Virus genome (UHGV): UHGV-0107341
From: a virus
Direction: 5' to 3' (one strand)
DNA: 54,395 nt
Positions 8,730-11,418 of the stretch are shown here, piece after piece. Position numbers and translations under genes: made by a program. The notes beneath the pieces were generated by a model, which was not told the DNA's origin, ran no database searches, and saw only the letters and a program-made list of their open reading frames with translations. Within the stretch, counting starts at the first letter, position 1. Each line of letters starts with the position of its first letter.

Positions 8730-9431
8730 TTATTCTGATTCTCGCTCAAAAAACGAGCTAATAAGGGGAAGCCAATCCTCTGACACTTCGCGAGGTCGCG
8801 GTTTGCCGTGGAAAAAGATTATTCGGCAGTCTTTTGGTAATGCCCCATTCCCCCTGGAGTAACGCGCGCTCGCATATTTCGAACCAGGTTCCACAACATC
8901 GGCCTTGTAACTTACAAACCATCCCGGATACAGATCCTGAAATGCTGGTGTATCATCACCCATAACCTTCCGCAAAAACCCCTGATCACCCCAGCATTCA
9001 GTAGTAACACAACGAGCAATCCAACCTTCCGGATCTTGCCAGAATGCACTCCAGATATGCGCTTTTACACTATTTGGTATCCACAGGGCACCGCTACCAC
9101 GATATTGTGGATGGTAAAAATCCCTAAGCATGGTGAAGCTGGTTGGTGGATTCTCAAGGATTGGGCGTATATCACCGGCAATAACCGTGTCCAAATCCAG
9201 ATAGAACAGATCATCGGTTATATCCGGTCGGAACAACTCGATTTTCGCCCACCAGCCACGGCACTTTTGCCACTGGTTGATCAATGGGACAACTTTGACG
9301 CCAGGTACATGTAAACGCTTCAGGTCTGTCAGGCAAATAATTTCATAGCCTTTTGGCAGTTGATTAACCAGCCACTGCACATCGGAAGCGTTATAGTCAC
9401 CACCAGAGCGAAGAACTAAAGCAATCTTCAT
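8730..9431 (-). CDS. hypothetical protein, possible DXD-type nucleotide-sugar transferase
   Basis: LDLDTVI (DxD-like) motif in a ~230-aa protein; assignment tentative. Confidence 0.35.
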
Positions 9432-10120
9432 GCTGCACCATCACCTTTCACTTTCATCAATGTCAGGTTTCCGCAAAATACGGCACCAGTGTCGATATAA
9501 TGCTGATTCCAGAATGTCTTCGGGCTTTTCACCGGAGTGTGACCAAAGATAAAACGATCTGCGCCCGAAATTTCGCCACCAATATCATCCATCGAATCAC
9601 TGATACGCTCGCGCGCCCAGACAACGTTGAAAAGCGGCACCTCCTTACCGAATTGATATTCATTATCCGGATAGTCGGCATGGGCTATAACGATAGTTTC
9701 TTGCCCGATGTTCAACTCAATGATATAGGGCAGTCGTCTTACCAACTCCACCAGCGCCCTGGCTAATATTTCCTGATCAGCGTCCAGCATGAAGAACCAT
9801 TGACCGCCATTCATTAGCCAGTTATTCACGTTGCCATCAGGACTTAACGCATCAATCATCAGCCGCTCATGGTTGCCCATAACCGCTCTGAACCATGGCA
9901 TCTGCAATAGCTCCAGGCATTTAACATTTTCGGTGCCGCGATCGATAATGTCGCCGACCGATATCAGTAAATCCTGCGCAGGGTCAAAATCCACACGATG
10001 GAGTTCGGACATCAGTCTGGTGTAGCAACCATGCAGATCACCAACAACCCAGACATTCCTGTATTTGGTACCGTCGATACGGTGATAAATTGTGGGTGCT
10101 ATCATGTATTCTTCAGCCAT
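9428..10120 (-). CDS. Ser/Thr protein phosphatase, PP-lambda / PrpA-PrpB family (likely ortholog of P1 ppp)
   Basis: Calcineurin-like metallophosphatase motifs GDLHG, GDIIDRG, GNHE present in order. Confidence 0.85.
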
Positions 10121-10728
10121 TCTTTAAGAGTCATCTGCGGAATACCTCCCATTTTCCCGCATGAAACAACGTCAATCTGTTCACGCGCAGACTGGAATAA
10201 CAAAGGCAGGTGACTTAGATTTTTTGGCGTGCCGCCGGAGTGAACGCGTGGTTCTTGCGTAGCGTCAACGCCCACCAGGGCTACATGTTTGAATCCGATA
10301 TGGAAAGCCAGGTTCAGAGCACCATATGCACTATTGCCGCTGGCAATTTCATTCTCATCTTCGCAAAGTCCGAAATGTGCGGACCAGCGCCACGCCCACC
10401 ACTCGGGAGAATTCGTATTTTTTGGCTCCATGCCACGTTCAGCCACACGACGGAAGCACAGAACGCCGTCTCTGACTTCACGTTCTTTAACATCGGGTAG
10501 TGCCATGCAATAACAAACACCACGGCGACGGCGGCCACGACCAACGCGCCGCATATTGTCTGGCGATGGATCAAGTGTGAAAAAATAAGAAGCGCGGTTC
10601 AGCCAGTCGATGGCCCCATTGACCGCTATAATCGGCACTCCGCGCGGCGCAACAAAGTTTGCGGCGCTTGGGCCACTGCCGACGATAATAACGCGATCAC
10701 TGCCTCTAAATTTATTCTTGGGAAACAT
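10102..10728 (-). CDS. MptE-like / DUF115 Rossmann-fold protein
   Basis: N-terminal [14 protein letters not shown]...IIAVNGA matches the GxGPS...VN signature of the MptE-like (DUF115) family. Confidence 0.4.
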
Positions 10729-11255
10729 TGAATTGCACTGCTCCTACTTGCATTCAAAATATGTAAATCTGCGTGTTTTTTGCGGGTATCCAGGAACTGC
10801 TGTTGCCATTTTGAAATAGACACCTGCGTTGGATTCCGTAGTGCTTGAGGGTGCGCGCCATGCCAATGAAGGCCGTTTTGCAGAGAACAGTCATAGCCGA
10901 CTAATACCACTACTTCAGCCCCTGATTCAGCAGCCAGACTGATAGCCTGCGCGCCGCTATTTACCCCTTCCGCCGGTCCACAATATCGCCTGTACTCCAA
11001 CGAAAATGATTTCGCCGCCGCCAGGTTGGCTGTCACTTTGCGGAATCTCCCTCCCGGTATGGTGGATCCGTATTGCTTCCACCATGACAAATCACCGGCG
11101 TATAAGGCATAAATGTCATCGAACATCTGCCAGGAATTGTTAACCGCGATGATTGAACAGCCAGTTTTTTCTATAGCAGCACAGTCCTCACGAGTGAGTG
11201 ACGGACCGCTACCGACACAAAAAACAGTCCTAGTCGCCCTGGGTGGTATGTTCAT
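10626..11255 (-). CDS. MptE-like / DUF115 protein (tandem paralog)
   Basis: TVFCVGSGPSLTR...IIAVNNS signature; start trimmed to internal Met; overlaps the downstream paralog by ~100 nt in another frame. Confidence 0.4.
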   Translation of the reverse strand: MNIPPRATRTVFCVGSGPSLTREDCAAIEKTGCSIIAVNNSWQMFDDIYALYAGDLSWWKQYGSTIPGGRFRKVTANLAAAKSFSLEYRRYCGPAEGVNSGAQAISLAAESGAEVVVLVGYDCSLQNGLHWHGAHPQALRNPTQVSISKWQQQFLDTRKKHADLHILNASRSSAIQCFPRINLEAVIALLSSAVAQAPQTLLRRAECRL

Positions 11256-11418
11256 TCTCAGCTGCAAATTCAGCCTCCAGGCGAGCATTCATTTCAGCGA
11301 TTACAGGGTCCACTACAGCATCTGTTTCCTGTTCATTACGCGGCATGACCGATGCCAGCGACTCATAATTAACCTTGGATGACACGATTATTCTCCCGAT
11401 GTTAAAGTGCACTACCAC
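11230..11418 (-). CDS. hypothetical small acidic protein
   Basis: ORF track 62 aa; real start may be an internal Met. Confidence 0.25.
   Translation of the reverse strand: MVVHFNIGRIIVSSKVNYESLASVMPRNEQETDAVVDPVIAEMNARLEAEFAAENEHTTQGD

Follow-up and report, generated by a model that had tools for sequence, protein, structure and literature searches.

The genes pmgO, pmgP and pmgQ of P1-type phages: a recurrent cassette of putative glycosyltransferases with an overlapping gene pair

Which task do the genes pmgO, pmgP and pmgQ perform in P1-type phages? P1 belongs to the classic phages and serves as a standard tool of genetics, yet no function is assigned to about one third of its genes, the pmg genes among them. 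Here, we describe this locus in the virus genome UHGV-0107341, which represents a P1-type phage or phage-plasmid; the whole analyzed stretch of 54,395 nucleotides (nt) is called the window. Its positions 8500-11500 show 98.2% identity to phage P1 (NC_005856, AF234172) and 96.8% to P7. Four open reading frames (ORFs) on the minus strand correspond to the annotated P1 genes pmgQ, ppp, pmgP and pmgO, and a more distant ORF is dbn (Table 1). An earlier note on this DNA had proposed that these five genes may form a module for modification of the host or the virion rather than a set of morphogenesis genes.

In the original P1 annotation the pmg genes are described by ‘putative morphogenetic function’, and in RefSeq PmgO is named ‘alpha-2,3-sialyltransferase’, PmgP ‘norphogenetic protein’ and PmgQ ‘glycosyltransferase’. 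A functional study of pmgO, pmgP or pmgQ was not found in the literature, which contains only tables of essentiality and expression. The genes themselves are already known; new are the widespread pmgP-pmgQ cassette with pmgO and a methyltransferase as further members, its conserved overlapping or fused architecture and its frequent residence in head operons. We show that the three genes move as a group among unrelated phages, often with an S-adenosylmethionine (SAM) methyltransferase, and that natural fusions exist. In all probability they constitute a glycosyltransferase cassette, whereby three P1 genes become one testable unit with the predicted donors CMP-Kdo (cytidine monophosphate-3-deoxy-D-manno-oct-2-ulosonic acid) and UDP-hexose (uridine diphosphate-hexose).

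Composition of the cassette and fold of its enzymes

In total 48 loci were examined. Besides the window, 17 of them are genome contigs with one representative per species, about 25 are viral contigs other than P1 that were gathered with a distant homolog as lead sequence, and several are metagenomic contigs. They are samples with related sequences, not fully de-replicated, and were screened for a fixed set of markers. PmgQ lies within 4 kilobases (kb) of PmgP in all 45 informative loci (45 of 48, the other three being truncated contigs), and PmgO was detected in 37 of the 48 besides a fusion of PmgO with PmgP. SAM or FkbM methyltransferases accompany them in 11 of the 48 loci, and seven loci have a fourth protein, of GT-A type and about 190 amino acids (aa) in length. 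An exhaustive profile search revealed 543 clusters of the PmgP family at 50% identity, of which 241 reach E <= 1e-10. Natural fusions of the PmgP domain (P) with the PmgQ domain (Q) or other partners occur as P-Q, Q-P, Q-P-methyltransferase (616 aa), methyltransferase-P and P with a divergent second MptE-like domain; they are carried by P0349, P0299, P0373, P0389, P0386, P0418 and P0422, with the PmgQ domain as a fusion partner in P0299, P0373, P0389 and P0349. This constant co-occurrence together with the fusions bears out the earlier proposal as far as pmgO, pmgP and pmgQ are concerned, which can be regarded as one functional unit. The fourth member, which is absent from P1, shows a weak match to Nucleotid_trans (PF03407) and a DXD-like motif WVDCDG (L003:9757-10335, L095:2159-2731, and in L114, L116 and L117), so that another GT-A glycosyltransferase is probable from its sequence.

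For the two remaining genes the proposal has to be revised. The Ser/Thr phosphatase was correctly recognized: Ppp is a metallophosphatase of the lambda type (PF00149, 56.8 bits at a cut-off of 21.5) that falls into the NinI-like PHROG 246 (E 2.9e-111) and reaches 278 bits with NCBIfam PRK11439, under the equivalog cut-off of 326. As a member of the cassette it is rejected because of its distribution. It was found in eight of the 48 loci, all of them P1-like, where it is inserted between pmgP and pmgQ, and four P1-like contigs of 90-100 kb (L118, L125, L127 and L128) possess contiguous pmgO-pmgP-pmgQ without it. We conclude that ppp encodes an unrelated lambda-type phosphatase that was inserted into the operon in a part of the P1 lineage. 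The GT-B-like protein Dbn occurs in three of the 48 loci; a homolog with 39% identity lies 3 kb from the pmgQ-pmgP pair of Buttiauxella contig L100, the only independent non-P1 locus, and another with 56% identity near the cassette of P1-like L128. What remains of its membership is that Dbn may be a loosely linked accessory glycosyltransferase.

PmgO and PmgP both contain the sequence GSGPS...IIAVN, i.e. the GxGPS...(I/V)AVN signature that had been read in them, and the GPS together with the Asn of this N-terminal nucleotide-binding loop and strand is invariant in both families. In a pairwise BLAST the two proteins align in this N-terminal motif only (E 0.004). Profiles of 31 PmgO homologs (leaving out the PmgO-PmgP fusion) and 29 PmgP homologs align by hhalign over 162 columns with a probability of 98% and E 1.2e-13, which means that they are true, old paralogs. 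Invariant residues are GPS28-30, D35, N50, D66, WW69-70, SG111-112, GYDCS131-135, H141/H143/H146, W161, N179 and R182 in PmgO and include P20, N37, D53, GNSA131-134, D155 and H173 in PmgP. The fold of both is that of the central Maf domain and of MptE: in structural comparison the Maf glycosyltransferase gives the best and longest match (157-169 aligned residues versus 130-136 for MptE), followed by SteA, thiamine pyrophosphokinases and GT29 sialyltransferases. With this fold match and the profile alignment the assignment of both genes as MptE-like paralogs is confirmed. They carry the fold of Maf flagellin glycosyltransferases and GT42 sialyltransferases in its minimal catalytic form.

Many homologs have a precomputed match to PF01973 (MptE-like, DUF115/Maf_flag10), and its gathering threshold (34.6 bits) is passed by the PmgO-PmgP fusion P0051 (44.6 bits) and by P0337 (44.1 bits). 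WaaZ of Escherichia coli, the Kdo-III transferase of lipopolysaccharide (LPS), matches the same model with residues 1-195 (29.6 bits). From the membership of WaaZ, Maf, Cst and MptE it follows that this superfamily holds CMP-ulosonic-acid transferases acting on proteins (Maf) and on glycolipids (Cst, WaaZ) as well as pyrophosphokinases. In CbMaf the residues D272, S334 and D357 are essential (bioRxiv 10.1101/2020.06.03.131540). Compared by spacing, the invariant triads D66/S111/D133 of PmgO and D53/S133/D155 of PmgP have 22 aa from Ser to Asp versus 23 aa in CbMaf. Searches of the PDB with the single sequences of PmgO and PmgP yielded nothing meaningful and the search with the PmgP profile no match, and the PmgO profile retrieved Cst-II only, without significance (E about 1). 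PmgO thus could not be placed in CAZy family GT42 by similarity to Cst-I/Cst-II together with a CMP-sialic acid donor. NCBIfam has no family for PmgO, PmgP or PmgQ, and the PADLOC models of anti-phage defence gave no match for PmgN, PmgO, PmgP, Ppp, PmgQ and Dbn.

The name sialyltransferase, which PmgO has in RefSeq and PHROG, is therefore unproven. Its sequence similarity to the GT42 enzymes Cst-I and Cst-II of Campylobacter jejuni (PDB 2p56, 1ro7) is not significant, E. coli K-12 as the standard host of P1 to our knowledge makes no CMP-sialic acid, and equivalents of His188 and Tyr156/Tyr162 of Cst-II are not established.

PmgQ indeed contains the LDLDTV motif, with D79-L-D81 (9189-9197) as DXD, and belongs to PHROG 1962 (glycosyltransferase). 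Its profile matches solved structures of the GT8 type, namely Gat1 (6mw5, E 1.7e-8), a pneumococcal GT8 enzyme (5gvv, 5.4e-5) and glycogenin (1.7e-4). Among 34 homologs D79-L-D81, H208, P211 and P213 are invariant, the latter three in a C-terminal H208-G-x-P-x-P. Both the DXD with the C-terminal His motif and the profile similarity thus identify the DXD protein of the earlier note as a GT8-like retaining GT-A glycosyltransferase. The GT-A core, the DXD and the C-terminal His-Gly-x-Pro are common to PmgQ and GT8 enzymes such as glycogenin, Gat1, GlyE (5gvv) and those of WaaO/WaaJ type, from which it differs by its shorter length (233 aa) and by the lack of any Pfam match of the single sequence at E <= 0.1.

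Donor, acceptor and competing functions

The fusions and the constant GT8-like partner are strong arguments for PmgO and PmgP as glycosyltransferases of a glycan pathway with several steps, and against pyrophosphokinases. In the pathway proposed here PmgQ would transfer a hexose from a UDP-sugar with retention of configuration, and PmgO as well as PmgP would attach a 2-keto-3-deoxy (ulosonic) acid supplied by a CMP-sugar. The enzymes would work as a physically coupled assembly line, the translation of pmgO and pmgP being coupled through their overlap, and the methyltransferases, where present, would methylate the glycan. The donor of the ulosonic acid is probably CMP-Kdo of the host, since no cassette examined carries genes for sugar-nucleotide synthesis and all hosts named in the homolog records are Gram-negative genera or families. 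Maf expressed in E. coli was reported to put Kdo on Ser/Thr (bioRxiv 10.1101/2020.06.03.131540). The acceptor, as the least certain step, would be a virion protein of capsid or head-tail that is modified in the cytoplasm late in infection. Taken as a whole, this chain from a conserved mobile cassette via hexose and ulosonic acid to a virion protein is a tentative proposal with slightly less than even odds.

A virion protein appears to be the most likely acceptor because of the embedding in head operons, the association with chromosomal adhesins and the analogy to Maf. In HK97-like prophages (Zhongshania L096, Pseudomonas L103, Ochrobactrum L104 and several viral contigs) the cassette directly follows the major capsid gene and precedes the connector or head-completion genes (these three and L112, L113, L116, L121, L124 and L129). 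The order is even interleaved in L126, where capsid, PmgO, a gp6-like connector, a head-completion protein, PmgP, methyltransferase, PmgQ, gp10-like and gp17-like genes follow each other. In five chromosomes of Pseudescherichia/Enterobacteriaceae (L090-L094, e.g., L092:1343-9777) PmgO-, PmgP- and PmgQ-like genes flank adhesin genes, one for an inverse autotransporter of 1177 aa (IAT_beta and seven Big_1 repeats) and one for a second protein with Big_1 repeats. This points to a locus outside phages that is devoted to adhesin glycosylation. Gene context thus seems to favour modification of the virion over that of the host.

With respect to morphogenesis the earlier note was right in part. The genes pmgO, pmgP, ppp, pmgQ and dbn are non-essential for plaques (genome-wide CRISPR interference screen and the knockout library cited there; PMC10695390), and being dispensable for plaque formation the cassette genes are not core assembly genes, but many prophages have the cassette inside the operon for head morphogenesis.

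Several observations weigh against this reconstruction. In P1 the cassette does not stand beside head genes, and the C1-controlled operator ahead of it implies early expression. In eight loci, mostly lambdoid prophages (among them L004, L106, L108, L115, L120 and L122), it adjoins lysis genes and is mostly found between lysis and terminase, an interval that is the classic slot for lysogenic-conversion genes, and in two contigs (L102 and L111) it is surrounded by genes of nucleotide metabolism. PmgO (23.4 bits) and PmgP (20.9 bits) themselves stay under the gathering threshold of PF01973; they are without the further domains that Maf has at both termini, and they resemble the LPS enzyme WaaZ in their small size. 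A direct hhalign comparison of the PmgP family with the single WaaZ sequence of E. coli is weak (probability 17.6%, E 1.4e-3, 74 columns), the likeness being restricted to a segment SAxxAxxLAxxLG...GxD. Donor, acceptor and catalytic residues are all putative. Finally, glycans on P1 particles are not mentioned in the P1 proteome and cryo-electron microscopy papers that were searched, which is an absence of mention only. Concerning expression in P1, no convincing minus-strand terminator was found from the late promoter LPpmgL to pmgQ, and read-through of pmgL-pmgM-pmgN-pmgO-pmgP-ppp-pmgQ from this promoter could provide late transcription. In the window, neither the C1 operators nor the late promoter differs from P1.

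Among the alternatives, modification of the LPS core or of another cell-surface glycan of the host is the most serious one, and we consider it possible but rather unlikely. PmgO and PmgP would then add Kdo like WaaZ, and PmgQ would act like the GT8 glucosyl- and galactosyltransferases of the core. The core, including the P1 receptor, would be altered or truncated, with other phages being excluded or fewer progeny lost on cell debris as benefit. WaaZ (E. coli K-12/R2 LPS core; GT73) is in the same superfamily and resembles PmgO and PmgP as a small stand-alone enzyme, both phage proteins being minimal catalytic domains; it uses CMP-Kdo, the donor proposed for them. A WaaZ_KDO_III match is present in the precomputed Pfam record of a fusion homolog, where it is marked as faint, but the direct comparison of PmgP with WaaZ is weak as mentioned, and WaaZ, an unpaired chromosomal enzyme, has lipid A-core as its acceptor. 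The GT8 likeness of PmgQ fits as well, since LPS outer-core transferases of E. coli are GT8 enzymes in CAZy, whereas SAM or FkbM methyltransferases as partners are atypical of LPS core assembly. All named hosts make LPS, and several lambdoid prophages harbour the cassette in the moron slot between lysis and terminase. In about ten loci, several distinct HK97-like lineages among them, it sits however within the head-completion genes, in one case interleaved with them, a placement that implies late co-expression, too late for remodelling of existing LPS. Moreover, the P1 operon is repressed by C1 in lysogens and thus does not serve lysogenic conversion in P1. Should this explanation be correct, the cassette would represent a new receptor-editing or exclusion function.

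It is improbable that PmgO and PmgP are enzymes similar to MptE or thiamine pyrophosphokinase, or other nucleotide-dependent enzymes, acting on a small molecule or nucleic acid, e.g. in the modification of DNA or nucleotides. The similarity to MptE (archaeal 6-hydroxymethyl-7,8-dihydropterin pyrophosphokinase, PDB 8sd5) and the two nucleotide-metabolism contexts would fit, but the region aligned with MptE is shorter than with Maf, and PmgP is always coupled, and sometimes fused, to a GT8-like enzyme and to methyltransferases of sugar type. Pterin, folate or thiamine genes were not found among the neighbours scanned with Pfam (the 48 loci were screened for the fixed markers only); the identified neighbours encode glycosyltransferases, methyltransferases and phage structural or lysis proteins. 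Furthermore, we know of no sugar or pyrophosphate modifications of P1 DNA.

Coming back to a glycan on the virion, two known systems are instructive. Maf proteins (flagellin nonulosonic-acid glycosyltransferases; PF01973; PDB 5mu5) possess flanking N- and C-terminal domains, in contrast with the bare catalytic domains of about 200 aa in PmgO and PmgP, which are phage-borne, form an overlapping or fused divergent pair, always have a GT8-like partner and are known here from sequence. Glycosyltransferases and methyltransferases of the mycobacteriophages Che8, Corndog and Myrna decorate capsid and tail proteins and are dispensable for growth, according to the account of Freeman et al. (2023, Cell Host Microbe 31:1216) given in PMC11256854. 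They belong to other enzyme families, act in Actinobacteria hosts and are experimentally demonstrated, whereas a corresponding role of pmgO-pmgP-pmgQ is deduced from gene position. It is conceivable, although doubtful, that many tailed phages of Gram-negative bacteria including P1 O-glycosylate their own capsid or head-tail proteins with a short Kdo-containing, sometimes methylated glycan, for which PmgQ, PmgP and in part PmgO would draw on CMP-Kdo and UDP-hexose of the host, and that in some Enterobacteriaceae the system has been co-opted to glycosylate adhesins of the inverse-autotransporter type. Virion glycosylation would then be known beyond actinobacteriophages for the first time, and Kdo linked to protein would have its first natural example. 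If phages of Gram-negative hosts do carry sugars on their particles, this would matter for the way in which the immune system recognizes phages used in therapy, and for particle stability and adsorption. The enzymes would then serve as small tools to join Kdo-type sugars to proteins.

The overlap between pmgO and pmgP

The long overlap of about 100 nt in different frames was correctly seen: pmgP starts in the -1 frame of pmgO, 103 nt before the end of the latter. The shared DNA codes for residues 188-220 of PmgO, i.e. a conserved CFPRxxLE helix and a variable tail, and for residues 1-34 of PmgP including the nucleotide-binding GSGPS loop (10666-10680). The ATG at 10728 is the sole start in the pmgP frame that keeps this invariant loop, and the conserved C-terminal helix of PmgO with the near-invariant F189 and L194 is encoded downstream of it. 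The final approximately 18 aa of PmgO form a non-conserved read-through tail modelled with lower confidence, and closer relatives of PmgO end at least 11 codons earlier than the P1 protein.

Relatives with pmgO directly before pmgP always show an overlap (4, 11, 13, 40, 49, 67, 70, 94, 100, 103 or 133 nt) and never an intergenic spacer. The frame of pmgP relative to pmgO is -1 with the exception of one Pseudomonas-type lineage at +1. At the DNA level the end of the PmgO domain and the start of the PmgP domain abut within about 12 nt, and in the podophage-like contig L003 both are found in one in-frame protein of 376 aa (P0051). The simplest reading is that a change of frame by one base at the junction either split a two-domain gene or joined two genes. 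The 103 nt of P1 then represent the long end of a continuum set by the next stop codon in the pmgO frame. GGAG or GAGG motifs upstream of pmgP starts were observed in relatives as well, and the AGGAG within pmgO (Table 1) is consistent with independent, coupled initiation of pmgP. We infer that translational coupling keeps PmgO and PmgP in step.

It is very improbable that the overlap serves programmed -1 ribosomal frameshifting that yields a PmgO-PmgP fusion besides the separate products. The -1 frame in nearly all relatives, the natural in-frame fusion and two in-frame slippery heptamers in the P1 overlap (T TTC CCA and A AAT TTA) might be taken as hints, but about one chance heptamer in eight is expected over 34 codons by our own estimate, and slippery X XXY YYZ heptamers are not conserved, being missing from L004, L089, L101 and L103 and inconsistent in position elsewhere, so that we reject frameshifting as a conserved mechanism. 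Each pmgP begins at a start codon of its own, which a Shine-Dalgarno-like motif usually precedes, and a shift at AAATTTA would remove the conserved C-terminal helix of PmgO, which the natural fusion retains. That the overlap arose as an artefact of annotation or sequencing (an incorrectly chosen start, or one gene broken by a frameshift error) is hardly credible and effectively refuted: same-strand overlaps above about 60 nt often are annotation errors and the last 18 residues of PmgO are neither conserved nor modelled with high confidence, but the same arrangement is found in 19 P1-like phage records and many metagenomic contigs, it recurs in divergent relatives with 40-60% protein identity, and the single possible start retains the invariant GSGPS loop.

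Coordinates, annotation and neighbouring genes

Table 1. Positions of genes and signals in the window
Feature	Position	Strand	Description
pmgQ	8730..9431	-	233 aa; GT8-like (retaining GT-A) glycosyltransferase
ppp	9428..10120	-	lambda-type Ser/Thr metallophosphatase
pmgP	10102..10728	-	208 aa; distant PmgO paralog, same fold
pmgO/pmgP overlap	10626..10728	-	103 nt; pmgP in -1 frame
pmgO	10626..11288	-	220 aa; Maf/MptE/GT42-fold enzyme
AGGAG, Shine-Dalgarno-like	10741..10745	-	inside pmgO, 12 nt upstream of the pmgP ATG; sequence reading
pmgN	11230..11418	-	small ORF, upstream in the same operon; PHROG 2350, unknown function
Oppp (Op83), C1 repressor operator	11429..11445	+	upstream of pmgN-pmgQ; P1 annotation, sequence identical in the window
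LPpmgL, late (Lpa-dependent) promoter	12367..12385	-	upstream of pmgL; P1 annotation, -10 and -22 elements identical
dbn	17223..18221	-	GT-B (GT4-like) protein; Glycos_transf_1 23.2 bits, below cut-off

The operon at 8730-11418 is a run of same-strand overlaps from pmgN through pmgQ, which further comprise 59 nt between pmgN and pmgO (11230-11288), 19 nt between pmgP and ppp (10102-10120) and the 4 nt ATGA between ppp and pmgQ (9428-9431). Homologs of PmgO mostly begin near residue 12 of the P1 protein (Met at 11255), and therefore the annotated pmgO start and with it the overlap with pmgN may be too long. The -10 hexamer of PpmgN, a predicted sigma-70 promoter, reads CATGCT on the minus strand of the window (11458-11463) versus TATGCT in P1.

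The typing error ‘norphogenetic’ of the P1 record has spread throughout NCBI as official product name of PmgO and PmgP homologs, among the PmgQ homologs some bear the name ‘phosphohydrolase’, and ‘RNA-directed RNA polymerase L’ is the label of a gene at this place in one phage record; all three look like annotation errors. Each of the names ‘alpha-2,3-sialyltransferase’, ‘norphogenetic protein’ and ‘phosphohydrolase’ is either wrong or lacks proof, and other names are needed. Two genes nearby are of a similar kind: pap (6587-7093) codes for a HAD phosphatase of PNKP type (PF25109, 46 bits) and pmgM (11452-12030) for a VRR-NUC nuclease just under the threshold. Both seem to be enzymes and not morphogenetic proteins, so that the label ‘pmg’ appears to be generally unreliable in this region.

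Downstream, the region of pmgT, pmgU and pmgV (4587-6392) is unlike reference P1: the window has ORFs of 241 aa at 5667-6392 and of 214 aa at 4587-5231, and pmgT as annotated in P1 has 309 aa and an overlap of about 190 nt with pmgU. The low-GC stretch at 42000-44000 (38.5%) was considered as a foreign insertion and rejected as such; it is the ordinary immI/sim region of P1 (ant1, icd, simABC, tub, pmgC) with 97-99% identity to P1-like phages.

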